The notes under the pieces are model-generated. The model saw only the letters and a program-made list of their open reading frames with translations, did not search any database and was not told the DNA's origin. From an uncultured Candidatus Saccharibacteria bacterium (GTDB lineage Bacteria > Patescibacteriota > Minisyncoccia > Minisyncoccales > UBA10102), in NCBI GenBank assembly GCA_964359655.1, contig CAYHVI010000001.1:3164-67163 (forward strand): a DNA stretch of 64,000 bases, read 5' to 3'. Both the position numbers and the translations under genes were made by a program. Positions 2,640 to 62,402 of this stretch are shown piece by piece (positions within the stretch are counted from its first letter, which is position 1; each line of letters begins with the position of its first letter).

Positions 2640-3548
2640 TCACACTCCCCTAAGATTAAACAGAGTTTGCGCATTCTTTGTCGTTGCACAGGCGACTTCT
2701 TTAGAATTCACTTTTTTGATGCGCGCGATTTCTTGGGCAATATACTTTACAAAGATTGGTTCGTTTCGCTCTTTTTCCGCTTGCGCAGGCACTAAATAAG
2801 GCGAATCTGTTTCCAGAACAATGCGATCCAAGGGAATAGATGCGATTACTTCTTCTGGTTTTGGCAATGCAGGAACATTCTTGAAAATCAAACCGTTAAA
2901 CCCAAGATACAAACCAAGACCCATAAACTTTTGCGCCTGCTCTACGGTCCCGGTAAAACAATGTATAACGCCACGCAAGGGTGTAGTTTTTAGTTTATAG
3001 TTTGTAGTTAGTAGTTCAAGTAAGTCTTCGTGGGCAACTCGGCAATGGAGAATAACAGGAAGGTTTAATCCATCTGCCAAATCCATTTGCTTTTGCAAAG
3101 TTTCTTTTTGTTTTTGCTTAATTTCCTCTCGTTTTGCTTTGCTCTTTGGGAAATAATAATAATCGAGTCCGATCTCGCCTATCGCAACCACCTTTTTACT
3201 CTTTGCAAGTTCTTTGTATTTCTCGTAATCAAATTCTTCTGATCGAGTCTCAAATGTCATCCAATTCGCAGAATTGCCCTGAGCTTGTCGAAGGGCTTCC
3301 GAATCTTCGGATTGAACCTCCAGTACATCAACCTTTCGCTGTTCTCCAAGATGAATCGGGTGCAATCCAACTGCGCTATACACCCCCTCTTTATATTGTT
3401 CTGCAATTTCAACTGCGCGCTTGGACGTGGAGTACTGCGAGCCTGGCATTATCACCCAAATATCGTTTTCCAGCACGCGTTTCAGCACTTCATCTGAATC
3501 ATTTTTGAACGCATTAAAATTCAAATGACAATGAGTATCGATCAACAT
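2640..3548 (-). CDS. tatD: TatD-family metal-dependent hydrolase/DNase, with a low-complexity internal insertion
   Basis: MLIDTHCHLNF… N-terminus plus …GLHPIH… and …AIGEIGLDYYY… TatD motifs. I take the start as the internal Met at 3546-3548, to avoid overlap with metG. It carries an extra segment …ELLTTNYKLKTTPLRG… encoded by a GTAGTTTGTAGTT-type repeat. Confidence 0.8.
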   Translation of the reverse strand: MLIDTHCHLNFNAFKNDSDEVLKRVLENDIWVIMPGSQYSTSKRAVEIAEQYKEGVYSAVGLHPIHLGEQRKVDVLEVQSEDSEALRQAQGNSANWMTFETRSEEFDYEKYKELAKSKKVVAIGEIGLDYYYFPKSKAKREEIKQKQKETLQKQMDLADGLNLPVILHCRVAHEDLLELLTTNYKLKTTPLRGVIHCFTGTVEQAQKFMGLGLYLGFNGLIFKNVPALPKPEEVIASIPLDRIVLETDSPYLVPAQAEKERNEPIFVKYIAQEIARIKKVNSKEVACATTKNAQTLFNLRGV

Positions 3549-10852: not shown

Positions 10853-10863
10853 AATGTTGCAAA

Positions 10864-11153: not shown

Positions 11154-11828
11154 TCATGTAAAATTAATCACGATAACAAATTCGCCCTTTAGCTCACCTT
11201 TCTTGATTTCATCAATAACTTCAGAAATAGTTCCTCGATGCACTGTTTCGAATTTTTTGGTGAGCTCGCGGCCTACTACGGTTTGTAGTTGGTAGTTTGT
11301 AGTTTTTAGCTCGTGCAAAGTTTTCATAATACGATAGGGAGATTCGTAGAGAATAACAGGATATTTCGACTGCGCAATTTCTTCAAAAAACTTTTTGCGA
11401 CCTTTCTTTGCGGGCGGAAATCCAAGGAACAAAAAGCGATCCATCGGAAACCCTGCGATGCTTGCAATCGTCGTGAGTGCAGAGACGCCTGGAATTGGCA
11501 CAATCCTTACTGTTTGAAGCCCGGCTTCAAACACGCGGGAAACAAGCTCGTTGCCGGGGTCTGAAATTCCTGGAGTGCCGGCATCGCAAACCAACGCAAG
11601 GTTTTTCCCTTCTTTCAAGAGCTCAATAATGTGTTCAACTTTCTCAAGCCTGCTATGCTGATGATAACTTATCAACGGCTTGTCAATCTGATAATGCGAA
11701 AGGAGTTTTTTTGTTACCCTTGTGTCTTCGCACAAGATAAAATCAACCTCCTTGAGGATGCGGAGGGCGCGCAGAGTGATGTCTTTAAGATTGCCGATGG
11801 GAGTCGCGACAATATACAAAGTGCTCAT
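11154..11828 (-). CDS. rsmI: 16S rRNA (cytidine1402-2'-O)-methyltransferase
   Basis: …LYIVATPIGNLKDITLRALRILKEVDFILCEDTRVT… tetrapyrrole-methylase-fold N-terminus. It contains the in-frame repeat insert …LKTTNYQLQT…. Confidence 0.85.
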   Translation of the reverse strand: MSTLYIVATPIGNLKDITLRALRILKEVDFILCEDTRVTKKLLSHYQIDKPLISYHQHSRLEKVEHIIELLKEGKNLALVCDAGTPGISDPGNELVSRVFEAGLQTVRIVPIPGVSALTTIASIAGFPMDRFLFLGFPPAKKGRKKFFEEIAQSKYPVILYESPYRIMKTLHELKTTNYQLQTVVGRELTKKFETVHRGTISEVIDEIKKGELKGEFVIVINFT

Positions 11829-18457: not shown

Positions 18458-19081
18458 TCAATTTTGCAGAACCTTTGAAAGATGCTCTTGCGATATGGTG
18501 CGCAAAAGAGTTTCATTTATACCTTGAGTATCAATATTTTGCAAGGATTCAATGTTGCTCTCCAAAAACATCCCAATGAATTCGGCAATTCTCGCGTCTT
18601 TGGCAGCAATCTGCTCTAAAGAAGGCGCATATCCTGCATAAGAAAGAAGGTTCCAAAGGAAATAATAAGCAAGGATCTTCAAATCGTGACTCTCTAGTCT
18701 CGAACGGTTCAGAAAAGAAAGTGTCCCTTTGAGCAAATTCCAAATCTTTTCGTCCCGCTCTTGGCCTTTGATGAGTTCATCGGTAACTTCTGCAAATCTT
18801 TGCATTGCGCGCATACGCTCAAAGCTATTGCGTAACAAAGGATACCGTTCTACAAGAGTGGCGTCGGTAATGGTTTTGCGCGCTTTCCCCTGAATAAATT
18901 CTAGCTCTGAAAGATAAAAAAGCTCCAAGCCTCCGCGAAGTTTGGAAGTAATCTTGCGCTCTGAAATTGCCTGCAATTTTAGTTTGCCAAAATCTTTTGT
19001 AAAAACCGTAAACAGCCGATCTGCCTCCCCTCTATCCTGCTTTTTTAAAATAATCCCTTGTGTCCTGTAATGCACCGTCAT
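18458..19081 (-). CDS. recO: DNA repair protein RecO (short form)
   Basis: OB-fold N-terminus (…GIILKKQDRGEADRLFTVFT…) followed by a helical domain. Confidence 0.65.
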   Translation of the reverse strand: MTVHYRTQGIILKKQDRGEADRLFTVFTKDFGKLKLQAISERKITSKLRGGLELFYLSELEFIQGKARKTITDATLVERYPLLRNSFERMRAMQRFAEVTDELIKGQERDEKIWNLLKGTLSFLNRSRLESHDLKILAYYFLWNLLSYAGYAPSLEQIAAKDARIAEFIGMFLESNIESLQNIDTQGINETLLRTISQEHLSKVLQN

Positions 19082-22000
19082 TATTTTCGGATGGCGAGAC
19101 GGAGAGTTTGGCCTTCTAATGAGAACTCTTCTTCTACATCAAACGTTTGCTCTGACCGATCGCCCTCGCGCATTTCTTTCAACCCAACTTGAGACATAAT
19201 TGCTTTTTCATTTTCTTGCAGAATTTCTTTCAGTTCTTCTGCGCCCGTGTAGCGCAAACGTATTCTGTCTTGCGGCTTGTACCCTGCCTGCTTTCTCATT
19301 TCCTGGATATGGCGCATTATCTCGCGCAATGTTCCTTCTCTTTGCAATACGGGAGTAATGGTGGTATCGAGTTCTACCCCTTCTTTCGCGTTCGGATCGA
19401 CCAGAACCTCTTTTACATTAAGTTCATCCTTTATCAAATCCAGCAATTCTTTCGTCATTTTTAATTTTTCACTTTTAATTTTGAATTTTTGGAGCGGCTG
19501 TCTCACTTTTATTCCGACCTTCGCCCGTTCTGCCAATCCTTCTGCAACCAGCTTGCGAACTTGCATCATTTTTTTCTCGAGCTCTGCGTCAATTTTTTTT
19601 GAATCTGCTTTGGGCCAATTTTGCCAATGTACACTTCCCCTGCCCCCAAGTTCACCATAGATATACTCGCTCAAAAACGGGATGAGTGGCGCGGTCAACT
19701 TGCTGACTTCCAAAAGTACGCATCTTAAAACGCCTCTGGCTTCCTGAAGCTCTTTTTTGCTCTTGGGGTTTTGGGAACGTTGTCGAGAACGTCGAATATA
19801 CCACAAAGAGAGATCGTCGATCACAAAACTTTCGAGCACGCGCGCAGTTCCTGTGATGTCGTATTCATCAAACCTTTTGGTTGCCTCTCTTGTTATGGAG
19901 TGGATTCTCGAAATAATCCACTTATCTAAGATATTTTTTGTTTTGAGGTTTTGGGTTTTAGGGTTTGCTTGAGCATTGAGTCTTGAGGTTTGGGATTTTT
20001 TATATGTTTGGTAGAACACAAAAGAGTTCCACAACGTCAAAATAAATTTGCGCATTGTTTGCTGCAAATCTTTTTCCGCAAATAGTTTGGAATCCCACGG
20101 CTGGTTCAATGTATAAAAATACCAGCGAAGCGTGTCCACTCCATACTTTGCAATCATATCCCAAGGATTTACCACATTTCCTTTGGACTTGGACATTTTC
20201 TCGCCTTTCTCATCAAGCAAATGCCCCAAAGAAATTACGTTTTTGTATGGCGCTTTCAAGCCCAACGCCGTAGCCACAGCCAAAAGCGTATAAAACCATC
20301 CGCGTGTTTGGTCGATTGCTTCGCAAATATAATCTGCGGGGTAACCTTCCACGCCAGAAGCAAACGGCATGGAGCCTGAATCAAACCATACATCCACGAC
20401 GTCTTTTACGCGTTTCATTTGCCCTTTGCCACATTTTCCGCACTGAAATTCGATCGCATCAATGTACGGCCTGTGCAAATCAAGTTCCATATCTTCGTTC
20501 ATGGGAAGCCTCGCGAAAGCTACACGTCTTAACTCTCCTGGTTCAACTGCTTTTTTTTCGCGGAACTGCACGAATTTTTCTCGCGACATTCCCTTCATCG
20601 TTTTCTCCAACAAAGAAAGAGGTATCTCATGACTTACCAAAACAATGCGTTTCCCTTGATACTTTTTTTCTATTGCGGCTAGCAAATCAAACACGCGCTT
20701 TTCAACATCGACCCAATTCTCTCCCTGCGGCGGCCGTTCCACAAATCTACGCAGATAATGCTCCTGGATCGTTTCTCCTTCTTTTCTAAAGTATGCTCCA
20801 AACTCACGAATGTGCTTTCCATTGAAAATGCCTACATTAAGTTCTCGTAGCCGCGCATCGTAGATAATTTGCGCGCCAAGTTTTTTCCCAATGATTTCGG
20901 CAGTTTGTTTCGTTCGCAAAAGATCGGATGAAAAAATCAAATCAATGTTTTTGCGCAACAGACCTTCTGCGATTTTTGTAATTTGTTTCACTCCCTTGGG
21001 CGTCAAAGGAAACGGATCCGCCTCAGGATACGAACCCAAAATCCCCGTTACTTGACGCATAGAATGGCCGTGCCGCAAAAGATAGTACGTGTTTCCCGAA
21101 GTTCTTTGTTTTTTGAGATCGTCCAGAGAACCTATGACTTCCAAATGATCGCACGAACTGCACTCCCACACAGGTAAAGGAGTACCCCAGTACCGTTCTC
21201 TCGAAAACGCCCAGTCTTTCACCTCGGCCAACCATTCACCCATCCTGCCTACTTTCATATGGCTCGGAATCCAATTAATCTGTTGGTTATTCGAAATGAG
21301 ATCTTTTTTAATCTTCTGCATATTCACAAACCAGCTTTCTTTTGCGTAATACAGCAAAGGAGTCGAACACCTCCAGCAAAAAGGATATTCGTGTTCATAC
21401 AACTCTTCTTTGAACAAAAGATTTCTTTGCTTTAAATCTTCAACAATCAGAGGTTCTGCTTCTTTCACGAATACTCCTTGCCATTGAGGCACTAATTCGT
21501 TGAACTTTCCTTCTTCGTCTACCGTATGCCTTTTGGGAAGATTTAGTTTTTGCCCGAGCTTGTAATCGTCTTCTCCGTACATCACCGCAGTGTGCACAAC
21601 TCCTGTTCCTTCCTGCGTAGAAACAAAATCCGCCAGTGCCACATAATGTTTTTTCTCTGGCTGGCTTTTGAGAGAATCAAAAAGCGGTTCATATTCTATA
21701 CCTTCAAGGTTTTTTCCTGAAACTTCTTTGAGAATTTCGTAATCTCCCTGAAGAATCTTTAGAAGATCTTTGGCAAGAATATATATTTCTTCTCCTTGTT
21801 TTACTGCGACATACGAGATATTTTCCCCTACCGCAAGAGCGACGTTCCCAGGCAGTGTCCACGGTGTTGTTGTCCACGCCAACAAAAACAATTTTGAATT
21901 TTGAATTTTGAATTTTGAAATTGTTTCGGATTTCGAATTTCGGATTTCGAATTTCACAAAGACGGTTCTGTCTTTGACCGTCTTGTACCCTTGCGCCAAT

Positions 22001-22596
22001 TCATGCGACGACAAAGGAGTCCCACAACGCGGACAATAAGGCACCACTTTGTAATCTTTATATAACAATCCTTTCTTCCAAAACTGCTGGATAATCCACC
22101 ATAGACTCTCCATATAATTCTTCTCATAGGTGATGTACGGATTATCGATGTCTAACCAAAAACCTATGCGCTCTGTAAGTTCATCCCATTCTCTTTTATA
22201 TTCCCATACCGACTGTTTGCATTCTTTATTGAATTTTGCGATCCCGTATTGCTCAATTTCTTTTTTGGACTTTAATCCAAGTTTTTTCTCAACCTGCAAC
22301 TCTACGGGCAGACCGTGAGTATCCCAGCCAGCTTTTCTGCCAACGTAAAATCCCCGCATTGTTTTGTAGCGGCATATTACGTCTTTAAAAACCCGCGAAA
22401 GAACATGATGAATTCCGGGACTTCCGTTTGCCGTGGGAGGGCCTTCAAAAAATACAAAACGAGGAGAGCGCTTTCTCCTCTCAAGAGATTTTTCAAACGT
22501 TTTCTGCTCTTTCCACCGCTTCAGTATCTGCTCTTCCAACTTCGAAAAATCAGCTTCCATGCTCTTTAGAATACTACGTTTTGCATACCTTTTCAA
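19081..22596 (-). CDS. ileS: Isoleucine--tRNA ligase with an inserted histidine-phosphatase (PGAM-like) domain and two in-frame repeat insertions
   Basis: HIGH-type signature (…PTANGSPGIHHV…), KMSKS (KMSKSKGN), and editing and anticodon-binding domains. Residues ~498-703 (nt ~20488-21105) form a histidine-phosphatase domain (…YYLLRHGHS… plus …VLVSHE…). It sits between the conserved …YWGTPLPVWEC… and …HRPYID…WFDSG… segments. Confidence 0.9.
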   Translation of the reverse strand: MKRYAKRSILKSMEADFSKLEEQILKRWKEQKTFEKSLERRKRSPRFVFFEGPPTANGSPGIHHVLSRVFKDVICRYKTMRGFYVGRKAGWDTHGLPVELQVEKKLGLKSKKEIEQYGIAKFNKECKQSVWEYKREWDELTERIGFWLDIDNPYITYEKNYMESLWWIIQQFWKKGLLYKDYKVVPYCPRCGTPLSSHELAQGYKTVKDRTVFVKFEIRNSKSETISKFKIQNSKLFLLAWTTTPWTLPGNVALAVGENISYVAVKQGEEIYILAKDLLKILQGDYEILKEVSGKNLEGIEYEPLFDSLKSQPEKKHYVALADFVSTQEGTGVVHTAVMYGEDDYKLGQKLNLPKRHTVDEEGKFNELVPQWQGVFVKEAEPLIVEDLKQRNLLFKEELYEHEYPFCWRCSTPLLYYAKESWFVNMQKIKKDLISNNQQINWIPSHMKVGRMGEWLAEVKDWAFSRERYWGTPLPVWECSSCDHLEVIGSLDDLKKQRTSGNTYYLLRHGHSMRQVTGILGSYPEADPFPLTPKGVKQITKIAEGLLRKNIDLIFSSDLLRTKQTAEIIGKKLGAQIIYDARLRELNVGIFNGKHIREFGAYFRKEGETIQEHYLRRFVERPPQGENWVDVEKRVFDLLAAIEKKYQGKRIVLVSHEIPLSLLEKTMKGMSREKFVQFREKKAVEPGELRRVAFARLPMNEDMELDLHRPYIDAIEFQCGKCGKGQMKRVKDVVDVWFDSGSMPFASGVEGYPADYICEAIDQTRGWFYTLLAVATALGLKAPYKNVISLGHLLDEKGEKMSKSKGNVVNPWDMIAKYGVDTLRWYFYTLNQPWDSKLFAEKDLQQTMRKFILTLWNSFVFYQTYKKSQTSRLNAQANPKTQNLKTKNILDKWIISRIHSITREATKRFDEYDITGTARVLESFVIDDLSLWYIRRSRQRSQNPKSKKELQEARGVLRCVLLEVSKLTAPLIPFLSEYIYGELGGRGSVHWQNWPKADSKKIDAELEKKMMQVRKLVAEGLAERAKVGIKVRQPLQKFKIKSEKLKMTKELLDLIKDELNVKEVLVDPNAKEGVELDTTITPVLQREGTLREIMRHIQEMRKQAGYKPQDRIRLRYTGAEELKEILQENEKAIMSQVGLKEMREGDRSEQTFDVEEEFSLEGQTLRLAIRK

Positions 22597-24397: not shown

Positions 24398-26137
24398 TCA
24401 CATCTTCTCAAGAGTTTGTATCCCAAGAAGATAAAGGCTGTTTTGGATGAGTTGGGCGACAGCAGAGGTAAGAAGCAAACGAAACTCTTTTTGCTGTTTG
24501 GTTTCTGCTTGAAGCACAGAATGCGCGTTATAAAAGGCATTGTATTTTTGCGCAAGATCAAACACAAAGTTGCAAATAAGATTCGGGGCATATTTTTCTG
24601 CCGCCTCATACACAATCTCTGGAAATTTGTATATCGTGCGCAGTATACCCAATTCCTCTGCCGATAAATTAGGTAAAACATTGCTACGTAGCAGTATACT
24701 TCTTGCCGCATTGGGCTTGTGTAGGATGCTCTGACAACGAGCGTATGTATAAAGCAAATAAGGGCCGGAGTTTCCATCGAGCGCTACTGAACGTGCCAAA
24801 TCAAACATAACGTTCGATTTCGTGTCGGTTTTGAGCACCGAATATTTTACTGCCGCGATTGTGCCTTTTTCCCGCACTTCCTCTTTTTCTTTCAAAGTAA
24901 GTTCTTGGCTTGTGATAAGGTTTGTCAAAAGATTTTTCACTTCGTTGAGCAACCCGTCCACTGTCACCACCACGCCTGTCCGAGACGAAATCTTCTTTCC
25001 AACCAACTGCACCATACCCATAGGCAAGTGATACTCACGAGTCTTAAATTTTTCATCAACCAGTTCCAAAGCCTTAAACACTACCTCAAAGTATCCTGAC
25101 TGCTCATTTGCCACCACGTGAACGTTCAAATCAAAAGGAAAATCTTTATATTGTAAAGGCGCCAAACCCATTTCCTTTGCTTCGTACGTAGGATTTCCTT
25201 CTTTGGTGACAAAGACTCTTTTGTGCAAACCATACTTTTCTCCGTCGAATATGATTGCGCCCTCGCTCTTTTCGAAAACCTTTCCGACGTTCTGCAATAC
25301 AATGTTCTTGCCTTGTTCCGCAACTTCACTTTCAAAGTAGAGTTTATCAAACGTGGTGCCAAAGCGAGGGTAAAAGTGTTTATAGTAATCTAAACTCCAC
25401 TTTCGGGTACGCTTGTATGCTGGCATGACGCTCCTGTCTTTGCGATATAACTTTGCATTAAGCTCATCAATGTTTTCTTTATGCGTTTCATACTCCTGAT
25501 TTCCCCTTACATAACCCTCACCCAAAAGATGAGCTTTTTCTTGCAAATGTAACTTTTCCGCATCGCTCCACGACATCCCTCGCTCTCCTAAAATCTTTTC
25601 TGTGCCCCATATAGCTTTTGCCACGTGCGGCCCAATATCTCCCTGATAGTTTGCGCGGAATACTTTCGTCCCATTCGCCTCAAAAATACGCGCCAAAGCT
25701 TCTCCGGTAATTAAAGTTCGCATATGGCCAATATGCATTTCTTTGTGCGTATTCGGATGCGCGTACTCCACCATTATCTTTTTGCCGCGAAGCAATGTGT
25801 TTTGCCCGAATTTTTCTTTTTCCCGAAGCACTGTTTGAAGCGTCGCTTCAAACAGTTTGCGCGCCAGGTAGAAGTTTATAAAGCCATTTACTGTTTCAAC
25901 TTTCTCGAGGATTTCTGATTGTTTACCGCTGATCGCTGAAGCGATTGTCTCGGCAAGCTCTTTTGGATTTTTCTTGAGCTGCTTTCCTAGAATCAGAGCA
26001 ATGTTCGTCGAATAATCTCCATGTTCTGGATTTTCTGGATGCTCCAATAAGATCTGCTCAATAGAAAAATCGCCCAATTCATTTTTGAGTTCCTTGAGCG
26101 CATTCCGAATGATTTTCTCAATTTCTTCTCGGATCAT
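24398..26137 (-). CDS. argS: Arginine--tRNA ligase
   Basis: 579 aa with an N-terminal Arg_tRNA_synt_N-like region, a HIGH-class signature (…AHPNTHKEMHIGHMR…) and a DALR anticodon-binding C-terminus. Confidence 0.88.
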   Translation of the reverse strand: MIREEIEKIIRNALKELKNELGDFSIEQILLEHPENPEHGDYSTNIALILGKQLKKNPKELAETIASAISGKQSEILEKVETVNGFINFYLARKLFEATLQTVLREKEKFGQNTLLRGKKIMVEYAHPNTHKEMHIGHMRTLITGEALARIFEANGTKVFRANYQGDIGPHVAKAIWGTEKILGERGMSWSDAEKLHLQEKAHLLGEGYVRGNQEYETHKENIDELNAKLYRKDRSVMPAYKRTRKWSLDYYKHFYPRFGTTFDKLYFESEVAEQGKNIVLQNVGKVFEKSEGAIIFDGEKYGLHKRVFVTKEGNPTYEAKEMGLAPLQYKDFPFDLNVHVVANEQSGYFEVVFKALELVDEKFKTREYHLPMGMVQLVGKKISSRTGVVVTVDGLLNEVKNLLTNLITSQELTLKEKEEVREKGTIAAVKYSVLKTDTKSNVMFDLARSVALDGNSGPYLLYTYARCQSILHKPNAARSILLRSNVLPNLSAEELGILRTIYKFPEIVYEAAEKYAPNLICNFVFDLAQKYNAFYNAHSVLQAETKQQKEFRLLLTSAVAQLIQNSLYLLGIQTLEKM

Positions 26138-29099: not shown

Positions 29100-30824
29100 C
29101 TATGGAAGCATCGCAAGCATTTTCTCTGCAGAAAGAGTGTTAATAATATCTTTCTTTTCTGCCCAACCGCGCTTGGCTTGCGCAATACCGTACTTCAAAC
29201 ATCCAAAATGATCTTGAGCATGGGCGTCAGAATCAATAGTCATCTTGCACCCTGCCTCTACGGCCTTTTTAATATTGCTGTCTTTTAAATCTAAACGATC
29301 CGGAAACGCGTTAATCTCTAGAATTGTTCCTGTTTTCTTTACTTCCCTTATAATTTCGTCCATATCAACCTCATACGCCTCCCTCTTATGAATAAGACGG
29401 CCGGTTGGGTGGAACAAGATATCAACATTGGGATTTCGCATGGCTTTCACTATTCTTGCGGTCATATCTTTTTTCGTCATCTTAAAACTCGAGTGCACAG
29501 CAATTCCTACCACATCGAGCCTTGAAAGAACTTCGTCTGTAATATCGAGTGTCCCGTCTTTTCGAATATTCACTTCCGCTCCTTTCAGTATCTTAAATTT
29601 CGAATTTCGAAATTCGGATTTCGAATTTATTTTGTCGATCTCTCGCATCTGCGCCAGCAGTTTTTTCTCGTCCATGCCTCCAGTCATCGCAAGATCTCGT
29701 GTGTGATCAGTTATTGCAATATACTCCAATCCCTGTTTCTTTGCCTCTTTTGCCATAGCTTCTATCGAGTCTTTACCATCGGTCCAGTTTGTCTGCACTT
29801 GCAAGTCTCCTTTCAACGAATCATACGGAATAACGCTTGGAAGTTTTCCTTCAAGGGCACAATCTATTTCTCCTTGATCTTCCCGCAGCTCTGGCTCAAT
29901 ATATTCCATTCCTAATGCTTTGTACACATCTTGTTCGGTTTTGCAGGCAATGCGTTTTTCCCCCCGAAACAATCCATATTCTGAAAGCTTATATCCCTTA
30001 TTTGCAGCACGTGTTCGCAACCTCACATTGTGCTCTTTTGATCCTGTAAAATATTGAAGTCCTGCTCCAAACACCTCTTGCCGCAGAACGCGCATATCAA
30101 TGTCGAACCCTTCGGTAGTGCGCAAAGAAACCTTGGTTGATCCTTTCCCCCAAATTTTTTCATACGAAACCAAGGAAAGAAAATACTCGACTGCTTTTTC
30201 CGGCTTGCTCGTGGTAATCAAGATATCCACATCGCCGATCGTTTCTTTCATTCGCCTGATCGAGCCTGCTGCAACCGCCCGCGTAATCAATGGAGAATCC
30301 TCCAGCCGCGCAACCAAATCTTCTTGATAAGGATAGATGTTGCCGAGGAGCCATCTTCCCTTCGAGCGTTTTACAAAATCAATGCCCTGCAGAATATTTT
30401 GCTCTGTTTTTTCGCCAAAGTTGGGAAGCTTTCGCACCTTGCCTGCTTTGGCCGCTTTTTCCAAATCATCGAGGGTTTTGATTTTCAGATGCTTATACAA
30501 ATCGCGCACCATTTTAGGCCCTACTCCCTCAATAGAAGTAAGCTCTTGAATGTCAACCGGAAATTTCTTCCGGAGTTTTTCATGCTCTTGGATTTCTCCT
30601 GTTTTAATGTACTCTTCGGTTTTCTCTGCTATGCTCTTCCCAACTCCCGGAATCTGTTCTAATCCCCGCAACCCTTCTCTCTCGTATATTTTTTCTACGC
30701 CTTCTGACAGAGATTCTATGGCATTTGCTGCTCTGACATATGCCTGCGGCTTGAAAGGCACACTGTCGATCTCCAGATACAAAGCAATATTCGAAAAGAG
30801 AGAGGCTAATTTTTTATTGGTCAT
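29100..30824 (-). CDS. polX: Family X DNA polymerase with C-terminal PHP domain (PolX)
   Basis: Pol-beta-like N-terminal HhH/fingers/palm (…GVGKSIAEK…, …GSIRRMKETIGDVDILI…) and a C-terminal PHP domain (…HTRDL…, …DSDAHA…). It contains the in-frame repeat insert …INSKSEFRNSKFKI…. Confidence 0.85.
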   Translation of the reverse strand: MTNKKLASLFSNIALYLEIDSVPFKPQAYVRAANAIESLSEGVEKIYEREGLRGLEQIPGVGKSIAEKTEEYIKTGEIQEHEKLRKKFPVDIQELTSIEGVGPKMVRDLYKHLKIKTLDDLEKAAKAGKVRKLPNFGEKTEQNILQGIDFVKRSKGRWLLGNIYPYQEDLVARLEDSPLITRAVAAGSIRRMKETIGDVDILITTSKPEKAVEYFLSLVSYEKIWGKGSTKVSLRTTEGFDIDMRVLRQEVFGAGLQYFTGSKEHNVRLRTRAANKGYKLSEYGLFRGEKRIACKTEQDVYKALGMEYIEPELREDQGEIDCALEGKLPSVIPYDSLKGDLQVQTNWTDGKDSIEAMAKEAKKQGLEYIAITDHTRDLAMTGGMDEKKLLAQMREIDKINSKSEFRNSKFKILKGAEVNIRKDGTLDITDEVLSRLDVVGIAVHSSFKMTKKDMTARIVKAMRNPNVDILFHPTGRLIHKREAYEVDMDEIIREVKKTGTILEINAFPDRLDLKDSNIKKAVEAGCKMTIDSDAHAQDHFGCLKYGIAQAKRGWAEKKDIINTLSAEKMLAMLP

Positions 30825-38988: not shown

Positions 38989-38989
38989 C

Positions 38990-40972
38990 ATGGTCACGCG
39001 AGATAGGATAGATTTCAACGGCGTATCCAGAATCAACACAGCCAAGGCCATTCTGCTGTTGGCCAGGGTGTATGCGCGGAATCCTGTTGAGATTCTCGCG
39101 CAATACATCGAGAACTCCATTGACGCCCGTGCAACCCAAGTGATCGTTGAGATGACACGAGATCGAATCGTCATCGCTGACAACGGGTCTGGTATGACCC
39201 CTTTCATTCTGCCAGACGATTTGACTGTCTTGCAGATGTACGCAGACGATGCCGCGCAAGGGAGACTTGATCCAGACTTCGACTTTCGCACTCTGATGAA
39301 CCCAGTCTCACTTCATAGTCTCCAGTGGATGAGAGAATGCATTGCCTTCTCTCCTAAGATTCCCGAGACGGGCACAATTGCAGGACAGCCACAACGCGGA
39401 ATGTTGGGTATCGGTATTGCGGCATTCCACCAGATCGCAAATCAAGCAGTCTGGCTTACGAGGCCGAACCTTGAGCTCGCACGGATGTATTGGGGCCCTC
39501 GCATAAACGCAGAGGACATCCCAGTCTTAAGGCTTGAGCCTCCTACGACCAAAATGCTCGACGGGATGAACTCGTCTTACCATATCGGCGAGACAGAAAA
39601 TCCCTTTGCTGATCCGTATGGTCGGAAACTTCAGTCAGGGACAATCATAGAGATTACATCTCTCACCCCTGGGCTGGACAAGGTTTTTCGGCCAGCTCTT
39701 CTTCAGCATCACTTCGCCAACCGCTTTGGTGAGGATACCAGAAGAGGAGTGAGCATTATCATCAGGGGGAGTCTCACGACTGACCCCACCCGAACTCCAC
39801 GCTTGCGCGAGGTAAGAGTGCAGCCCGTGATCCACCGAGGGATACCAGTGGTGGTAAAAACCACGATGTTTCTCGAGAATGGACAGTATCCTTTTGGGGT
39901 TGAGATCTACTACACCCCCTCTGGCCGTGGAGCAACAGGACTCAAACTACGGAGACTCGGGAGTGACGTCGCCCCGTTGACCGATCTTCCCCCGTTTCAA
40001 ACCCCTCCGTGGACCTTGCCATTATCAGGCTACGTGGAGTTTCCCAACACTCCGGAGGCTCCGTGGAATCCAGATAAAACCCTTCCAGTGGCCTCCAGGA
40101 TACTTCAGCAGTGGGAGGAAGTGATCCTGGCTCTTGCTCCTCAAATCGAGGACGTGGTTGAGCGAACCCAAAAGAGTGCAGAGGATGTACGTCTAAAGGA
40201 ATTTGCGAAGGAAGCAGAGGCTGCTACCGTAGAGGCAATCAGAAACCTCCCCATTTTCCAGAACTCATTGGGAGGCTTCCTGGCAGGCAAGAGAAGACAG
40301 GGAAAGGGTACTACCCCTCGTGTCGAAGATCGAGTAATCGTTTCTGTACGAGGAGAGTATAACCAAGGGATTCCTGGAATCTCCATTGAACTGTGCTCTG
40401 GAGTAAAGAATCCTCAACCCCTGGAGACACGCAAGACCGGCAAGAGTGGAGCAATCTCTTTTGGTCGGTTTGCTCCAGGAACCTACCTAGTTCGAGTAGT
40501 GGACTTACCAGAACACATGACCCTCCAGGATCCTGTAGACTTCAAGTTCAGACTCACTTCGGCAGAACCTGGAATTCGTGTAACATTCCGCGTGACCACT
40601 GGCGAGCAACCGCCAGAACAGACCAAGATACCCCCGGTAAGGATTGAGTTTGTCCCAGGTGATGATCCGGGTTTGTTATATAGAACTGACCGACTCCAGA
40701 CTTTTGGGGTAATTGAGGTCAACTCTACGGCCGACGGTGTTCGAGAGGCCTTAGCAGAAATGCTCGAGAGCAATGATTACGCTCGCCTCAATGCCATTAC
40801 TGCACAGATTGAGGCAGCGGCACTAACCGCTACTGTACTCAAGGGCGAGGTATCAGAACTCTTCCAGCAGGCGTGTCAGTTTGCTGTTCGACTCTACACC
40901 GAACTACTAAAAGCTGATACCCAAAGACAGCAAAAACTCCAGCAGCAACGCAGAAGGGCAAGACAGAGCTAA
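38990..40972 (+). CDS. GHKL-superfamily ATPase (HATPase_c, MORC/MutL-like Bergerat fold) with C-terminal carboxypeptidase-regulatory-like beta-sandwich
   Basis: N-box and G1 box in …ILAQYIENSIDARATQVIVEMTRDRIVIADNGSGMT…. The C-terminal segment …ISIELCSGVKNPQPLETRKTGKSGAISFGRFAPGTYLVRVV… fits the CarbopepD_reg-type pattern. Confidence 0.6.
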   Translation: MVTRDRIDFNGVSRINTAKAILLLARVYARNPVEILAQYIENSIDARATQVIVEMTRDRIVIADNGSGMTPFILPDDLTVLQMYADDAAQGRLDPDFDFRTLMNPVSLHSLQWMRECIAFSPKIPETGTIAGQPQRGMLGIGIAAFHQIANQAVWLTRPNLELARMYWGPRINAEDIPVLRLEPPTTKMLDGMNSSYHIGETENPFADPYGRKLQSGTIIEITSLTPGLDKVFRPALLQHHFANRFGEDTRRGVSIIIRGSLTTDPTRTPRLREVRVQPVIHRGIPVVVKTTMFLENGQYPFGVEIYYTPSGRGATGLKLRRLGSDVAPLTDLPPFQTPPWTLPLSGYVEFPNTPEAPWNPDKTLPVASRILQQWEEVILALAPQIEDVVERTQKSAEDVRLKEFAKEAEAATVEAIRNLPIFQNSLGGFLAGKRRQGKGTTPRVEDRVIVSVRGEYNQGIPGISIELCSGVKNPQPLETRKTGKSGAISFGRFAPGTYLVRVVDLPEHMTLQDPVDFKFRLTSAEPGIRVTFRVTTGEQPPEQTKIPPVRIEFVPGDDPGLLYRTDRLQTFGVIEVNSTADGVREALAEMLESNDYARLNAITAQIEAAALTATVLKGEVSELFQQACQFAVRLYTELLKADTQRQQKLQQQRRRARQS

Positions 40973-45992: not shown

Positions 45993-46446
45993 GATATTTG
46001 TTTATTTCGTATCCCGCGATTCCGAATGCAACGGCGACATTCAGCGATTCTTTCTGCCCCAGCATTGGTATTTCGATTATAACATCTGCACGTTCCAAGA
46101 CCGAGGGAGACACGCCTTTGAGTTCATGGCCAATGACTAAAGCTAAAGGAAATTTGGGTTTGAATTTCGCCAAAGAAATACTTTTCTTGGTTTGTTCGAG
46201 CGCTGCCACAAAAACTCCCTGCGCCTTCAATTGCTCTACCAAGCGCCAAGTTTGTTTGTGATATTTCCATGGCACAATTTTTTCTGCGCCCAACGCGGTT
46301 TTTGATATTTTTTCTGAAGGCGGGTTCCCGGAAATACCACACAGAAAAACTTTATCCACTGCCAGCGCGTCTGCCGTGCGAAAAATCGAGCCAACATTTT
46401 CCAAGCTTCGGATGTTGTCGCAAATAACAAAGAATTGATTACGCAT
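45970..46446 (-). CDS. SpoU/TrmH-family RNA 2'-O-methyltransferase
   Basis: …ICDNIRSLENVGSIFRTADALAVDKVFLCG… and …LVIGHELKGVS… SPOUT motifs. Its reading frame runs ~8 codons into the tRNA-Arg gene before the first stop. Confidence 0.7.
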   Translation of the reverse strand: MRNQFFVICDNIRSLENVGSIFRTADALAVDKVFLCGISGNPPSEKISKTALGAEKIVPWKYHKQTWRLVEQLKAQGVFVAALEQTKKSISLAKFKPKFPLALVIGHELKGVSPSVLERADVIIEIPMLGQKESLNVAVAFGIAGYEINKYRLRSSIG

Positions 46447-47395
46447 TGCCTTCTCGAAGGCGAGAGAATCGAATAAGCCCGGAGCAAGGGATAATCTCGA
46501 TTCCCTGCCTTTCAAGCTCGTCCAAAATAAGATTCATTCCAAGAGAATCAGAAGACATATGGCCCGTTACCACAATATTCATATTGGCAGCTTCGGCTTC
46601 TTTTTTACTGTCTTCGGTAATATGCATATCAACAATCGTGCCAATTCCGGCTTGCGCCATTTTTTCATACAGCTTTGGCGGAGGTTCGGTGCCACCCGTC
46701 ATTCCCACGTAAATGGTGCCGCAACGGTTCTCCGGTTTCCCTGAAAAAATCTTTGGCCCCATGCCCATTTCTGTCGCTTTTTCATACTCTTCAATCGTGT
46801 GCAAAAAGTGCAGTAAATCTTCGACTCGCTCTGGGCTTTCTGCTTCAATTTTCTCACGCAAAAACTTTGACACTTGATTATCCGCAACCGTATGCATGCA
46901 CATAAAGTTTACCCCAAGCAGTTTTGCAGCGTCGACTGCTCTCCAATTATTTCGTGGATTCCACATACGGAATACTTCAGAACTCCGTTCTCGCAAAAGA
47001 CTTTCTGCAACATTGATGGGCACGCCATACGAGTATAAGATGTCAGCTTGCATCTCCATTACCTCGTGCATATCTACCGTAGCTCTTCCTGAAGGATGAT
47101 GCGAGATTACCAAATCGATATCGTCAAGCTCCTTGGCAAGTAAGATTTCTGCAGCCTCAATGTCAATGCCCACCAGCGCCTTTTTGATTTCCCTGTCGTC
47201 TGCAACGTAAAGCACGCGCGTATCAGAATAAGGATTTTGTAAGGACTCTTGATCAAACTCTTTCTTCTCGTGCTCTGAAAGTTTTTCAAATTTCATTCGC
47301 TTTCTTTCGAGCAGTTTTTCCACGCGCTCTCTGCCTCGAGAATCTGCCTCAATGCCTTTCTCTATGGATAACTTATAGATGTCGCCGATCTTCAT
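46439..47395 (-). CDS. Nif3-like dinuclear-metal-centre protein (YqfO/YbgI family)
   Basis: …DLVISHHP… and C-terminal …VVTGHMSSDS… metal-ligand motifs. I take the start at the internal Met. Confidence 0.55.
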   Translation of the reverse strand: MKIGDIYKLSIEKGIEADSRGRERVEKLLERKRMKFEKLSEHEKKEFDQESLQNPYSDTRVLYVADDREIKKALVGIDIEAAEILLAKELDDIDLVISHHPSGRATVDMHEVMEMQADILYSYGVPINVAESLLRERSSEVFRMWNPRNNWRAVDAAKLLGVNFMCMHTVADNQVSKFLREKIEAESPERVEDLLHFLHTIEEYEKATEMGMGPKIFSGKPENRCGTIYVGMTGGTEPPPKLYEKMAQAGIGTIVDMHITEDSKKEAEAANMNIVVTGHMSSDSLGMNLILDELERQGIEIIPCSGLIRFSRLREGNA

Positions 47396-47545
47396 TGGGA
47401 TAAAGTTTCTCAATTTGTTTCTTTTGCTCTTCAACATTAGCAGTACTGCGCCGAATTCGCGCCTTTTCTTTTCGTATGTATTTTCGCATACCATGGGGAA
47501 TTTTCATGATTGGTTTGGGCATAGCTCTTCATCCATAGCACATTC

Positions 47546-48865
47546 TCAAATTTTTGTAAATTCTTCCTCAACTACTTTGCGTTCATCCCATGGAATTTTT
47601 TTACCTCCAGCTATTGCAATTGCGTCTTCCGAACCCTTGCCGCTTATCACCACCACGTCGCCTTCTCGCGCCAAAGACAATGCTCTACGAATCGCCTCTC
47701 GTCTATCAATAATTTTCAATAAATCTTGAGCTTTGAGCTTTGAGCTTTGAGCTTGAGAAACTCCAGAAGCAATTTGCTCGATGATTGCTTCTGGGTTTTC
47801 GTCATAGGGATCTTCATTGGTCAAAACAATAGTGTCGCAATACGAGGAAGCGATTTTGCCCAATAGAGGACGCTTCCATTTGTCGCGGCCGCCTCCGCAC
47901 GCTCCAAATACGCAAATAAGCTTTTTTGGCTCGAACAAACGTCGCACCCCAGCGTATAAATTTTCCAGCGCCTTTGGAGTAACCGCGTAATCAATCAATA
48001 CGCAAAACGGTTGGGTAATCACGGGCTCGGTTCTGCCCGGCATCCTCGGCATTTTCGCCAAAGCAGATTGGCACACTTCCATAGAAATTCCATGCGCCAA
48101 TCCCACGCATGTTGCAGCTAATGCATTGTACGCGTTAAATTGCCCAATAAGATTCAAGTGAAAAGCTACTCCATTGATGAAAAAATTCGTGCCCTCTTTT
48201 GTTTCTCGCACGTCGCTTCCGACAAATGTTTGGGTTTTAGGATTTGGGATTTGATTGAGATTTGAGGTTTGGGGTTTTGGATTTACTCCATACATGTATG
48301 TTTCGTTTGCGGGAATCTGAAAAAAATATGCCGCGTTTTCGTCATCCCCATTGACTACATGGAGTTTTTTGGCAGTAAAAAACAGCTTTTGTTTTTCTGC
48401 CCGATATTTTTCAAAAGAGCCATGCCGCTCAATATGCTCGGGCGACAAATTGGTGATTACTGCAGTGTGGAAATTCAAAAATCGGTGGCGATGCTGCAAA
48501 ATTCCTTCAGAGCTCACCTCGATGATTGCATGCGTACATCCCTCGAGCAGAGCTTGTGCCAAGAATTTTTGCAAAAACATTCTACCTGGCATTCCCATTT
48601 TCAACGTGTTTTTCCACTTTTTTTCTCCTATTTGAAACCACACCGAAGAAGTCGAACAAGTCTTATGCCCTGCTTCTTTGAAAATCCGTGTAATCATTTC
48701 CGTAGTGGTGGACTTGCCATCTGTACCAGTTATGCCAACTACAGTGAGTTTCCTCGCGGGAAACCCGTACATCACAGCGCCCGAAAACGCCCACAAAAAA
48801 TGATACCAGCTCAAGGCAAATCTCGGGACAGACCTCTGCAAAAGATTCTTTGCTCTTGCCATCAT
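47546..48865 (-). CDS. murE: Mur ligase family protein (MurE/MurF-like), with two in-frame repeat insertions
   Basis: Mur-ligase P-loop GITGTDGKSTT, a central domain and a C-terminal domain (…DYAVTP…). It carries …NPKPQTSNLNQIPNPKTQT… and …QAQSSKLKAQ… low-complexity inserts. Confidence 0.7.
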   Translation of the reverse strand: MMARAKNLLQRSVPRFALSWYHFLWAFSGAVMYGFPARKLTVVGITGTDGKSTTTEMITRIFKEAGHKTCSTSSVWFQIGEKKWKNTLKMGMPGRMFLQKFLAQALLEGCTHAIIEVSSEGILQHRHRFLNFHTAVITNLSPEHIERHGSFEKYRAEKQKLFFTAKKLHVVNGDDENAAYFFQIPANETYMYGVNPKPQTSNLNQIPNPKTQTFVGSDVRETKEGTNFFINGVAFHLNLIGQFNAYNALAATCVGLAHGISMEVCQSALAKMPRMPGRTEPVITQPFCVLIDYAVTPKALENLYAGVRRLFEPKKLICVFGACGGGRDKWKRPLLGKIASSYCDTIVLTNEDPYDENPEAIIEQIASGVSQAQSSKLKAQDLLKIIDRREAIRRALSLAREGDVVVISGKGSEDAIAIAGGKKIPWDERKVVEEEFTKI

Positions 48866-48892
48866 CCTTTTAATCTAGCACGTTTCTCGCCC

Positions 48893-48931
48893 AAAATTAA
48901 AGGGCGCTGCTGATTCGTTGTCATAGCGCCC
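48893..48931 (-). terminator. Rho-independent terminator after the 179-aa gene (minus strand)
   Basis: GGGCGCT…AGCGCCC stem. A preceding A-rich run on the plus strand gives a U-tract on the minus strand. Confidence 0.5.
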
Positions 48932-48944
48932 TCCATCTCCATTA

Positions 48945-49484
48945 TTATTTTGGAGGTAGCGTACCCTTCCTTGTAAGCACCTCCTCCGTTTGCGCATCGA
49001 TAGAAGGCGGCAACTCCTGTCCTGCTGCAAGGCGCGCTTGTGCTTCCTTTTGGATCTGACTGCTCGTCTTCTGTACTCTGTATACCTGTTGCATGAAAGC
49101 CAAGCTTGCTGGGGTGCCGGCAATCCTTGAGAATTCCGGTGCTTTTCTCCCCCGGAATCGGTTTTTCTCGATAAGAAAATCTGCGTCCAGCTCCTCGAGG
49201 TACTTAGTCGCTAGCTCAAGAGTGAGCGGGCGTTTGTCTGGATATTCATCGTCATCCCAGCTTGGATCGGGGCCTAAACGAAATGCTTCGCCGGTTTCCA
49301 TCTTATCGAACCATTGTTGATACAGTTCGAAAACGTCATACTTGTTGACGGCATCTACCCAAGCACACGCTCTTGCTAGAGGATCGTCTCGATCCCCCCA
49401 CTCACTTATACACGAGTTGAACAGTGCATGCGGAGTAACTTCGTAGTACGCCATGCCAACTCCTTTCTTTAAACATTCGGCCAT
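48945..49484 (-). CDS. Hypothetical protein (179 aa), tandem paralog A, GC-rich
   Basis: ORF. It shares …AC/MACA-V…W…Q… and a C-terminal …ELPP… pattern with the adjacent 158-aa ORF. Confidence 0.4.
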   Translation of the reverse strand: MAECLKKGVGMAYYEVTPHALFNSCISEWGDRDDPLARACAWVDAVNKYDVFELYQQWFDKMETGEAFRLGPDPSWDDDEYPDKRPLTLELATKYLEELDADFLIEKNRFRGRKAPEFSRIAGTPASLAFMQQVYRVQKTSSQIQKEAQARLAAGQELPPSIDAQTEEVLTRKGTLPPK

Positions 49485-49945
49485 GGTGGCAATTCAATAC
49501 CCTCATCCAATAGTGCTTGAGCCTTTCTTCGCACCTCCTCTGAAGTTTGTATGACTGCACACCCTTCTTGATAAAAAGCTTGTCTGGCTGCAAGTGGCAT
49601 TTCTTTGAGTTTTGGCAAAAGCACCTTTTCATCTACGGTTGGGCCGTAGAACTCTCCAACTGCAGCATCGATAAATTCAATGGTTTTGTCGTTATCTGGT
49701 AGTTTCCTTGTCGGATCCAATCTCCGTTCATCAACTTTCCCCTGATCAATCAATTGAAGCCAGGTACGTACAAACCAAAGAAAGTCCCAAACGCCCTGTG
49801 CTTCTACTACCGCGCATGCCATCGTGAAGGGATGATCCTTTGATTGTCCGCTTATTTCTGTGATATCGCCTCCATCATTTGCAGAGAGAAGCCGATTATA
49901 GATAATCCGAAGAGTCTTTGGCGAGGGTCGTGGTTCTCTTGGCAT
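49469..49945 (-). CDS. Hypothetical protein (158 aa), tandem paralog B, GC-rich
   Basis: ORF. It is a paralog of 48945-49484. Confidence 0.4.
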   Translation of the reverse strand: MPREPRPSPKTLRIIYNRLLSANDGGDITEISGQSKDHPFTMACAVVEAQGVWDFLWFVRTWLQLIDQGKVDERRLDPTRKLPDNDKTIEFIDAAVGEFYGPTVDEKVLLPKLKEMPLAARQAFYQEGCAVIQTSEEVRRKAQALLDEGIELPPWPNV

Positions 49946-50030
49946 GTCTTAACCTCCTTTCCTTGCTTTATTTTTATAGTAAGAACAGATGATCAATCTT
50001 ATCACAATATCATCGAATGTACAGAACAAA

Positions 50031-50066
50031 AGAGGCGTCACGAGTTGTGACGCCTCTTCAATATTT
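50031..50066 (-). terminator. Rho-independent terminator (minus strand) downstream of the 161-aa gene
   Basis: AGAGGCGTCAC-gagtt-GTGACGCCTCT is a perfect 11-bp stem. ACAAAA on the plus strand gives a U-tract on the minus strand. Confidence 0.7.
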
Positions 50067-50204
50067 GACATGCATGCATAGAGCTATGGCTCTATCACAC
50101 GCCGTACTCTTCGCACTGTCCTGCTCCTTTGCCCAGGGCAATGATCAGGATCTGGCGCGTACCGACGCGCAGGATCTGGTTGCGGTCCAGGGCTAGTCGT
50201 CGGA

Positions 50205-50690: not shown

Positions 50691-50775
50691 GGTATCACCC
50701 CCTTTCTAAAATGAGCTGTTTTTGAAATCACCTCCTTCTTTAGATATACCTTCTCGATGAAGTAAGTCAATACTC

Positions 50776-51336: not shown

Positions 51337-51349
51337 ATCTTTATAGTAA

Positions 51350-59538: not shown

Positions 59539-60042
59539 CTACAAAAAAGAAATTCTACGTTCGTTTTCTTTTGTGATTTCAAAAGAGATGGAAACTGTGT
59601 CTTTTGGAAGGATTTTTTGTATTCGCTCTGGCCATTCAATGAGGATTAAATTTTGAGGGTCGGACACAATCTTGTCCCATCCGAGCGAAAGAAGATCTTG
59701 TTCGTCTTTGATTCGGTAGCAATCAATGTGATACAAACACCCAAAATCCGAATATCGAATATCGAAATTCGAAACGTGTTTGGCTTTTCGTTTTGTTTCG
59801 GATTTCGTGCTTCGGATTTCGTATTTTTTGATAATAACAAATGTGGGAGAAAGAATTTTTTCTTGAATACCCAAACCTCGAGCAAATCCTTGTACAAAGG
59901 TAGTTTTTCCGCTACCTAAATTGCCCTTTAACCCAACGACAAGTGCATCTTTACACTTTCTATGATGCTCAAGTATATCGCAAGCAAACTTTCCTGCAAA
60001 ATGTTGTGTTTCTTTCGCAGAGGAACTTAAAAGAGTCTTCAT
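59539..60042 (-). CDS. tsaE: tRNA threonylcarbamoyladenosine biosynthesis protein TsaE, with in-frame repeat insertion
   Basis: P-loop GNLGSGKTTF and a …LYHIDCYRI… motif. The ~25-aa insert …EIRSTKSETKRKAKHVSNFDIRYSDFG… is encoded by TCGGATTTCG-type repeats. Confidence 0.8.
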   Translation of the reverse strand: MKTLLSSSAKETQHFAGKFACDILEHHRKCKDALVVGLKGNLGSGKTTFVQGFARGLGIQEKILSPTFVIIKKYEIRSTKSETKRKAKHVSNFDIRYSDFGCLYHIDCYRIKDEQDLLSLGWDKIVSDPQNLILIEWPERIQKILPKDTVSISFEITKENERRISFL

Positions 60043-62224: not shown

Positions 62225-62228
62225 TAAC

Positions 62229-62352: not shown

Positions 62353-62402
62353 TACCAAAGATAGGACATGTCCTATTGTTTCTTATTATAAACCACAACA
62401 AA

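Follow-up and report, generated by a model that had tools for sequence, protein, structure and literature searches.

How do the same short units of DNA come to lie in-frame in unrelated housekeeping genes and to give their products the same peptide? The question is raised by a 64-kb window, the whole stretch of 64,000 nucleotides analysed here (contig CAYHVI010000001.1, assembly GCA_964359655.1), whose minus strand encodes, among others, a MurE-subfamily Mur ligase of 439 aa (47546..48865; Pfam Mur_ligase_M and Mur_ligase_C) and an isoleucyl-tRNA synthetase (IleRS) of 1171 aa with an inserted His_Phos_1 domain (19081..22596; Pfam and homologs). The original prediction, made from the sequence alone, had placed families A, B and C of repeat insertions in these and other genes. 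On direct reading of the sequence, the G/T-rich plus-strand DNA attributed to family C is present at 48228-48285 and 19933-20000, in-frame and inside the minus-strand open reading frames (ORFs) of the Mur ligase and IleRS, respectively. The translations contain the peptides announced for both, VNPKPQTSNLNQIPNPKTQT (MurE aa 194-213) and KKSQTSRLNAQANPKTQNLKTKN (IleRS aa 866-888), as well as QAQSSKLKAQ (47726-47757). Here it is proposed that these stretches are probably slippage-type heptanucleotide simple-sequence repeats (SSRs) in coding sequences, ranging from young and perfect to old and decayed, and filtered by selection on the reading frame.

Heptanucleotide arrays in the window

Arrays were detected with Tandem Repeats Finder (TRF) and with our own lag scan over periods 4-15, using dinucleotide shuffles as the null. 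TRF reported period-7 arrays at ten sites, all of them in six minus-strand genes. In the lag scan, six arrays at period 7 scored at least 13, compared with none at the other periods and 0.03 in shuffles; at scores of at least 11 and at least 9, there were eight and nine period-7 arrays, against 0.05 and 0.48 in shuffles, respectively. With head-to-tail tandem copies, an excess over composition and a dominance of unit length 7, the window arrays have the properties of long simple-sequence repeats (LSSRs). The eight inserts in six genes counted earlier are borne out, with 9-10 arrays in TatD, RsmI, IleRS, PolX, MurE and TsaE. Calling all six genes essential was only partly right, as IleRS, MurE and TsaE are essential in model bacteria and TatD, RsmI and PolX are not.

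The MurE loop-1 array of family C (48228..48285, minus strand) reads, in sense, AAATCCA AAACCCC AAACCTC AAATCTC AATC AAATCCC AAATCCT AAAACCC, that is, four heptamers, a 4-nt partial unit and three heptamers, and encodes NPKPQTSNLNQIPNPKTQT (aa 194-213). It had been described as composed of an irregular 'gggatttg' unit; TRF resolves it instead as a degenerate period-7 array at 48229-48284 (consensus TTTGGGA, 8.4 copies, 75% matches), and the stretch is a decayed heptamer array. The second family C array, at IleRS site 2 (19933..20000, minus strand; TRF 19940-19967, period 7/8/14), has the sense units AAATCCC AAACCTC AAGACTC AATGCTC AAGC AAACCCT AAAACCC AAAACCT, and its product is the 23-residue segment given above, KKSQTSRLNAQANPKTQNLKTKN. 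A further short remnant of family C type, CCCAAAACC, lies at 19763-19775 in the anticodon-binding domain of IleRS (aa ~941-947, SQNPKSK).

The MurE loop-2 array (47726..47754, minus strand), earlier taken for a hexamer, (gagctt)x4.5, consists of perfect heptamers, TTGAGCT x4.1 (sense AAGCTCA; TRF period 7, 100% matches, score 58; lag scan in agreement), and produces SQAQSSKLKAQ (aa 370-380). The remaining arrays are also read from the minus strand. At IleRS site 1 (21890..21955; TRF period 7, 9.9 copies), sense (GAAATYC)n is followed by AAATTCA x4.3, together encoding KFEIRNSKSETISKFKIQNSK (aa 214-236), and IleRS site 3 has a weak array (19457..19490; ATTTTTA-type on the plus strand; TRF period 7, 4.9 copies, 77% matches) that yields QKFKIKSEKLKM (aa 1036-1047). 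The PolX array (29596..29628; sense AAATTCG/AAATCCG; TRF and lag scan) encodes INSKSEFRNSKFKI (aa 399-410). Sense units of the AACTACA type are found in TatD (2975..3016; TRF 2982-3016, period 7, 5.0 copies), encoding LKTTNYKLKTT, and in the RsmI-like methyltransferase (11281..11309; TRF period 7, 4.1 copies), encoding LKTTNYQLQT. TsaE carries two inverted heptamer arrays, of the GAAATCC and GAATTTC/GATATTC types (59743..59826; TRF 59743-59774 and 59796-59826), which encode EIRSTKSETKRKAKHVSNFDIRYSDF (aa 73-100) and form a predicted 80-nt RNA hairpin within the coding sequence (-22.8 kcal/mol, z = -2.2). An Rfam scan of the window at gathering thresholds returned the tmRNA and a tRNA-Arg, with no match at the arrays.

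Three 7-nt units make 21 nt, or seven codons, and the unit is consequently read in all three frames, giving a cycle of seven residues. Sense AAATCCC yields NPKSQIP and AAACCCC yields NPKPKTQ-type strings; AAATTCG yields KFEIRNS, AAATTCA yields KFKIQNS, AACTACA yields NYKLQTT and AAGCTCA yields QAQSSKLK, and these predicted cycles agree with the peptides observed in the window translations. Unrelated genes have peptides in common because the 7-nt unit is read in three frames, so that families A, B and C represent unit types of a single phenomenon. Low-complexity, translated additions are present in unrelated housekeeping genes as claimed, and MurE and IleRS do have nucleotide units in common, both yielding the NPKTQ peptide; the three families as separate insertion elements are replaced by instances of heptanucleotide tandem arrays that occur throughout Parcubacteria, in coding and in intergenic DNA. 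The same reading of the unit explains an annotation puzzle, the odd peptides (NSKFQI, KSEIRNP, TTNYKLQ, NPKTQ) scattered through proteins of the Candidate Phyla Radiation (CPR).

Distribution across Parcubacteria

The nearest named homologs of the window MurE and IleRS belong to Candidatus Wildermuthbacteria and other Parcubacteria. A scan of a genome collection with the MurE alignment provided 80 loci (1.16 Mb) from metagenome-assembled genomes (MAGs) of Patescibacteria, and these contain 63 arrays at period 7, against 0-14 at each other period from 4 to 15. Exact arrays of at least three units number 21 at period 7 and 3, 2 and 1 at periods 6, 8 and 9. The frame-neutral periods 6 and 9 are not enriched in the relatives although they are harmless in genes, and selection at the protein level therefore cannot explain the choice of 7; the preference points to a mutational bias. 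A 50-kb control from E. coli had no period-7 arrays, and a (KFEIRNS)x6 peptide query against 5.8 billion proteins matched only tiny hypothetical ORFs, which yielded no taxonomic range.

ORFs of at least 150 codons are open through 37 of 69 arrays in the relatives, and the other 32 are truly intergenic. Density is about sevenfold higher in intergenic DNA (~226 per Mb vs ~33 per Mb in ORFs), yet ORFs hold more than half of the arrays in the relatives and all of those in the window. Intergenic arrays often lie 2-80 nt from gene ends, and seven pairs are inverted.

Position of the arrays in the encoded proteins

The MurE host scores 345.7 bits against TIGR01085 (NCBIfam murE; cut-off 257.3). Its usual N-terminal Mur ligase domain is missing, the murE profile match beginning at position 75; the N-terminus (aa 1-40, 48746-48865) is instead a hydrophobic two-helix hairpin, which is kept in relatives and may be a membrane anchor. 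In IleRS, the His_Phos_1 domain (histidine-phosphatase, RHG motif; 20560-21084, aa 505-679) lies inside the catalytic domain and is present in 120/120 best homologs; it is therefore a Parcubacteria-wide feature of IleRS.

AlphaFold2 models of the two proteins (mean predicted local distance difference test, pLDDT, 88.7 for MurE and 79.2 for IleRS) were used to place the arrays, which fall in low-pLDDT loops between conserved elements; whether they lie in loops was a check that the original prediction had suggested. MurE array 1 occupies the loop between strands 188-193 and 211-221 (block pLDDT 77 and 56), and array 2 the loop between helix 358-371 and strand 382-384 (pLDDT 69). In IleRS, site 1 is in the loop between strands 204-218 and 236-242 (block pLDDT 55), and site 2 connects helices 841-865 and 889-910 and has pLDDT <50 at aa 869-882. 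The TsaE arrays correspond to a 24-residue insertion relative to the solved TsaE structure 6n9a_E.

The same positions vary in length among relatives. In an alignment of 35 homologs, the MurE arrays occupy the two most length-variable loops, and the relatives' MurE loops contain heptamer-type peptides of other kinds, e.g., KNSKSEIRNPKQIPNTKYQILN, SSKFKAQSSKLQLKSQN and SQNPNSKIQILK; at the DNA level, loop 2 has unrelated heptamer units in seven relatives (L011, L016, L018, L034, L056, L058 and L059). The three IleRS array sites, examined in an alignment of 41 homologs, are likewise length-variable among 40 relatives, some of which carry other heptamer-type peptides, at site 3 as well. The array loops appear as low-confidence, disordered surface segments with fast turnover between relatives, most likely without a function of their own. 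The term 'insertion' suits them loosely, as the arrays lie in loops of variable length in every relative; those of PolX and of a relative's arginyl-tRNA synthetase (ArgRS) stand in place of non-repeat sequence of equal length.

History and stability of the arrays

Syntenic relatives were compared codon by codon, namely L082 and L002, which belong to one Wildermuthbacteria contig (72% identity), and L084 (78%). The IleRS site-2 array is orthologous in L082, with 56/66 nt identical (85%) and no indel, and L084 has an unrelated, shorter sequence at this site. L002 likewise has an ortholog of the MurE loop-1 array, with 39/57 nt identical (68%) and again no indel. At IleRS site 1, the window equals L084 plus exactly seven codons (att tca aaa ttc aaa att caa, three AAATTCA units), and in the MurE alignment, loop 1 exceeds the loop of the P0002 type by 7 aa. 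The position of the PolX array is occupied in L082 by non-array sequence of equal length, and the RsmI array is missing in L084 and L082. Conversely, the ArgRS of L082 carries a perfect AAATTCG x4.9 (9651-9684), the unit type of the window IleRS, PolX and TsaE arrays, at a site that is occupied by equally long non-repeat sequence in the window ArgRS (24398..26137) and by about two units in L084. Ages vary accordingly among the arrays: those of family C are old and orthologous, and TTGAGCT x4 is perfect and lineage-specific. Judging from these alignments, arrays are gained, lost and replaced between species at 72-78% protein identity.

A sequencing or assembly artefact of low-complexity DNA might be considered, as the window and its relatives are metagenome-assembled. 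This explanation is scarcely credible. A contig from Hainich groundwater in ENA (L081) aligns with window 46070-51582 with 0 gaps and 99.6% identity, its 22 mismatches all being at contig ends, and both MurE arrays are unchanged in this second assembly. MAGs of other studies contain orthologous arrays, no array exceeds 66 nt, a length below that of a read and of the final assembly k-mers, and all of them leave long ORFs open. Exact look-ups of the window MurE and of a 100%-identical IleRS (P0121) matched no record.

Arrays as by-products or functional elements

The arrays could also be selected elements, acting at the nucleic-acid level (as a G-quadruplex, a hairpin or the target of a heptamer-reading protein) or as useful peptide appendages at the protein surface. 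Their presence in the same loops across many lineages would agree with this, as would the G-rich template strand of family C, the inverted and hairpin-capable arrangement of the TsaE pair and the seven intergenic pairs, and the G-quadruplex (G4) structures formed by the G-rich heptamer repeats of Xanthomonas and Nostoc (PMC4692102). Such a role is improbable. Neither family C array has a G-quadruplex motif (four tracts of at least two G, loops of 1-7 nt), and this form of the proposal was rejected, the motif being absent even with 2-G tracts. The sense RNA of family C has practically no structure (-3.6 and -1.2 kcal/mol, z about -0.8); RNA structure was rejected for family C and for TTGAGCT x4, where folding is no better than in shuffles. 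From one relative to the next, the units at a given site bear no relation to each other, loss or replacement of arrays is seen at 72-78% protein identity, substitutions in the orthologous IleRS site-2 array are mostly non-synonymous, and the array loops are those that AlphaFold2 models with low confidence, as disordered. Because there is no G4 motif, the RNA is unstructured, units at a site are unrelated and substitutions are mostly non-synonymous, we consider the arrays tolerated by-products rather than functional elements.

Origin of the arrays

The data show the anatomy of the arrays, their period specificity, lineage-wide spread, loop location, orthology and turnover; slippage as the mechanism, the reason for the 7-nt step and the neutrality of the arrays are inferred. 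In this reading, a mutational process with an intrinsic 7-nt step would generate the arrays, its source being slipped-strand or reiterative copying in replication or repair, as has been proposed for bacterial heptamer SSRs generally. The process would act genome-wide and be seen most densely in intergenic DNA; within genes, survivors would have to keep the frame, to lie in loops that tolerate extra residues and to contain no stop codon in any sense frame. The A/C-rich sense strand would be due to this last requirement, because stop codons must be absent in all sense frames. The outcome would be disordered surface loops, quickly turned over and probably functionless.

Array lengths bear on how frame is kept. 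Among 23 exact arrays in ORFs, 11 are 29-34 nt long and only 4 are 22-27 nt, whereas the numbers of exact intergenic arrays fall monotonically with length, from 10 at 19-21 nt to 2 each at 25 nt and 30 nt. The 29-34 nt class corresponds to 8-13 nt with 21 nt added, as expected from a gain of three units on a seed of one unit plus 1-6 nt. This clustering, together with the gain of seven codons in IleRS, suggests that arrays in essential genes arise by in-frame jumps, either as surviving three-unit slippage products or as ready-made blocks.

Several points weigh against the slippage reading. Slippage in steps of +7 nt takes a single-copy essential gene through lethal frameshifts, so that either a jump of several units or a ready-formed insert is needed, which ordinary slippage models do not predict, and the 29-34 nt mode that would record such jumps consists of few arrays (binomial p = 0.06). 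Copy-number polymorphism was absent between the window and L081 and between L084 and L085 (0 gaps in both comparisons), and no array-length variants were found among the members of ten 90%-identity protein clusters, this stability being based on a thin sampling of close strains; active slippage is therefore not demonstrated. A MurE variant of 431 aa (P0243) also has no internal indel in the alignment. Slippage does not by itself supply a cause for the preference for 7 nt. Finally, identical units are commoner within than between loci (6/66 vs 28/2407 pairs, odds ratio 8.5, p = 2e-4), both family C arrays have the irregular 4-nt partial unit (AATC or AAGC) at the same position, which hints at copying between loci, and the PolX and ArgRS arrays replace sequence at unchanged length.

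These last observations lead to a rival, in which arrays would first grow in intergenic DNA, where the frame is of no consequence, and blocks of them would then be copied ready-made to other sites, whether through ectopic gene conversion, through template switching or as part of a small non-autonomous mobile element. It would account for the few 'families' per genome (A, B and C) and for one-step, in-frame blocks in essential genes, and the 8.5-fold excess of identical units within a locus and the overwriting at constant length in PolX and ArgRS are what it expects. The MurE loop-1 and IleRS site-2 arrays have the same architecture of four units, a 4-nt partial and three units, with 75% identity in one register (unit-order shuffle p = 0.018). 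That register is the best in all four cross-comparisons of family C arrays among the window, L002 and L082 (61-75%); within the window, register -7 is nearly as good as register 0 for the pair. By blastn, the window IleRS site-2 array matches the L002 MurE array over 27/32 nt. From these alignments it is suggestive that the family C arrays are old paralogous copies, the copying having preceded the split of the window and L002/L082 genomes; no further full-length family C copy exists in the window or 85 loci. The window, moreover, has its AAATTCG arrays in IleRS, PolX and TsaE, and L082 has one in ArgRS. Against the rival, units of the AAATTYN type come up again in numerous unrelated genomes, with 11.8% of the pairs between loci lying within one mismatch, so that convergence is common, and a permutation test on near-identical units was not significant (p = 0.17).

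A dispersed intergenic element in L011, with inverted heptamer arrays and three copies, also speaks for dispersal. The copies, at 80-215, 857-943 and 2506-2587, share a conserved flank of non-repeat sequence, AAAACCGACAGAGGCCCGACCCC, after which come heptamer arrays (AAGTTAA) arranged as inverted arms. In contrast, the window arrays lack a consensus of fixed length, neither a terminal inverted repeat nor a target-site duplication is seen at them, and exact AAATTCG x3 has 3 matches in 2.9 million viral contigs, with no evident vector or phage link. A mobile element resembling Rickettsia palindromic elements, miniature inverted-repeat transposable elements or REPINs was rejected, given two family C copies at ~75% identity and the lack of terminal inverted repeats, target-site duplications and a consensus with defined ends. 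The family C body is also not hairpin-forming, although hairpins do occur in the TsaE insert and in some of the relatives' intergenic arrays. Taken as the origin of the arrays, ready-made copying is rather unlikely, and slippage filtered by frame is preferred.

A broader proposal is put forward only tentatively. Parcubacteria, and perhaps the CPR generally, may have a peculiarity of replication or repair that adds 7-nt reiterations, possibly together with copying between loci, and that writes 7-residue-periodic loops into essential proteins in jumps of 21 nt. Candidate causes of such a peculiarity are PolX and a DNA polymerase I (Pol I) without a 3'-5' exonuclease domain. The window Pol I (745 aa; 56532-58769, minus strand) has 5'-3' exonuclease and polymerase domains and no 3'-5' exonuclease domain, positions ~290-472 of the PolA profile being unmatched; judged from its domain content, such an enzyme may be relevant to slippage. 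A literature search for mismatch repair in Patescibacteria yielded no usable account.

Other features of the window

The window has further features besides the arrays. At 38233-40972 (plus strand), a G+C-rich gene pair (G+C 0.50) includes a 660-aa GHKL-type ATPase with a weak match to the BbrUII/HgiDII restriction enzymes, and may be an acquired defence or restriction module. The assignment of this ATPase (38990..40972) as MutL was rejected, its score being 25.8 bits where the cut-off is 180. Between the gene for a T2SSE/PilB-like ATPase and the next ORF, a segment of 83 nt is flanked by a perfect 25-nt inverted repeat, TAATAACCCCTCCAAGCTGGGGATC, at 62222-62246 and 62330-62354; this arrangement might serve as an invertible switch or represent either a miniature element or a structured RNA. 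A phosphoketolase (XFP_N/XFP/XFP_C) fused to a C-terminal CoA_binding_2 domain is encoded at 8090-10954 (minus strand), adjoining an acetyl-CoA synthetase-like gene (6129-8087). The tmRNA gene (27178-27546, plus strand; Rfam 96 bits) is among the few plus-strand features, and SmpB adjoins it in syntenic relatives.

Comparison with known repeats and significance

The phase-variable contingency loci of Haemophilus and Neisseria are long perfect tracts, heptanucleotide ones included, in surface and restriction-modification genes; they are polymorphic between isolates, and their length switches the gene on or off. The window arrays resemble them as short tandem repeats in reading frames, in which a change of one unit would shift the frame. 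They differ in having at most 5.4 units, in being decayed in many cases and in showing no polymorphism, and their hosts are IleRS, MurE, TsaE, TatD, RsmI and PolX rather than surface, virulence or restriction-modification genes. Another precedent is that of the Rickettsia palindromic elements, which Ogata and co-workers are said to have described in 2000 as in-frame selfish insertions in genes. As in that case, repeated DNA lies in-frame in unrelated essential genes, adds a surface peptide and is tolerated with function retained. Rickettsia palindromic elements are 100-150 bp long and palindromic, with a family consensus and no short internal period. The arrays, in contrast, are 20-66 nt long and tandem, those of family C are not palindromic, and there is no common full-length consensus.

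The cyanobacterial short tandemly repeated repetitive (STRR) units CCCCAGT, TTGGTCA and CAACAGT belong to heterocystous cyanobacteria, while the window units are AAATCCC, AAGCTCA, AAATTCG and AACTACA and the host belongs to Parcubacteria, a group with small genomes. With cyanobacterial STRR heptamers, and with GGGAATC of Xanthomonas and GGGGAYT of Nostoc, the arrays share the 7-nt unit, the preference for about four units, some inverted pairs and a length and sequence that differ between close species at the same locus (PMC4692102). In those organisms, a single unit dominates each genome, and the arrays form G-quadruplexes and are located no more than 50 bp from gene ends (PMC4692102), unlike the many A/T-rich units without a G4 motif found here, which in the window are all intragenic. 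TAACTGA repeats of marine Beggiatoaceae and some cyanobacteria have 2-6 direct copies, a few of them in ORFs, stop-free and translated as LSVISYQ (PMC4679880), much as in the window. They are a single heptamer, concentrated upstream of start codons and with a proposed regulatory role (PMC4679880); the arrays described here have diverse units and no positional link to translation starts.

The closest match is with heptanucleotide LSSRs. Heptamers are the most abundant class of long SSRs in the majority of prokaryotes, and a connection with the footprint of the polymerase has been proposed (Mrazek et al. 2007, cited through PMC4692102 and PMC4679880). LSSRs share with the arrays head-to-tail 7-nt units in ~3-5 copies, many unit sequences, occasional inverted pairs, an abundance of heptamers far above other unit lengths and a higher density in intergenic DNA. 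The known cases are mainly from free-living bacteria with large genomes (Burkholderia, cyanobacteria, Xanthomonas and actinobacteria), with heptamers intergenic and under-represented in coding DNA and units of a multiple of three in genes. The present arrays differ in their Parcubacteria host, in that about half are translated in housekeeping genes, and in that heptamers exceed hexamers and nonamers even within ORFs. An excess of heptamer SSRs is thus already known in bacteria; the coding, in-frame and CPR-wide form appears undescribed in the literature searched, where no account of heptamer or simple-sequence repeats in CPR/Patescibacteria was found (subscription journals lay outside its coverage).

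Heptamer SSRs, reported since 2007, had been regarded as essentially intergenic. Coding arrays offer a built-in read-out of the process, as selection on the frame exposes its step size, and they show the birth and replacement of low-complexity loops in essential enzymes. If the 7-nt step is tied to a given polymerase or repair deficiency, the question of the mutation mechanism in bacteria becomes testable. Should the tentatively proposed peculiarity of replication or repair be real, it would act as a major driver of protein-loop turnover specific to this lineage, and Parcubacteria would offer a natural system for dissecting the long-unexplained heptamer bias of bacteria.

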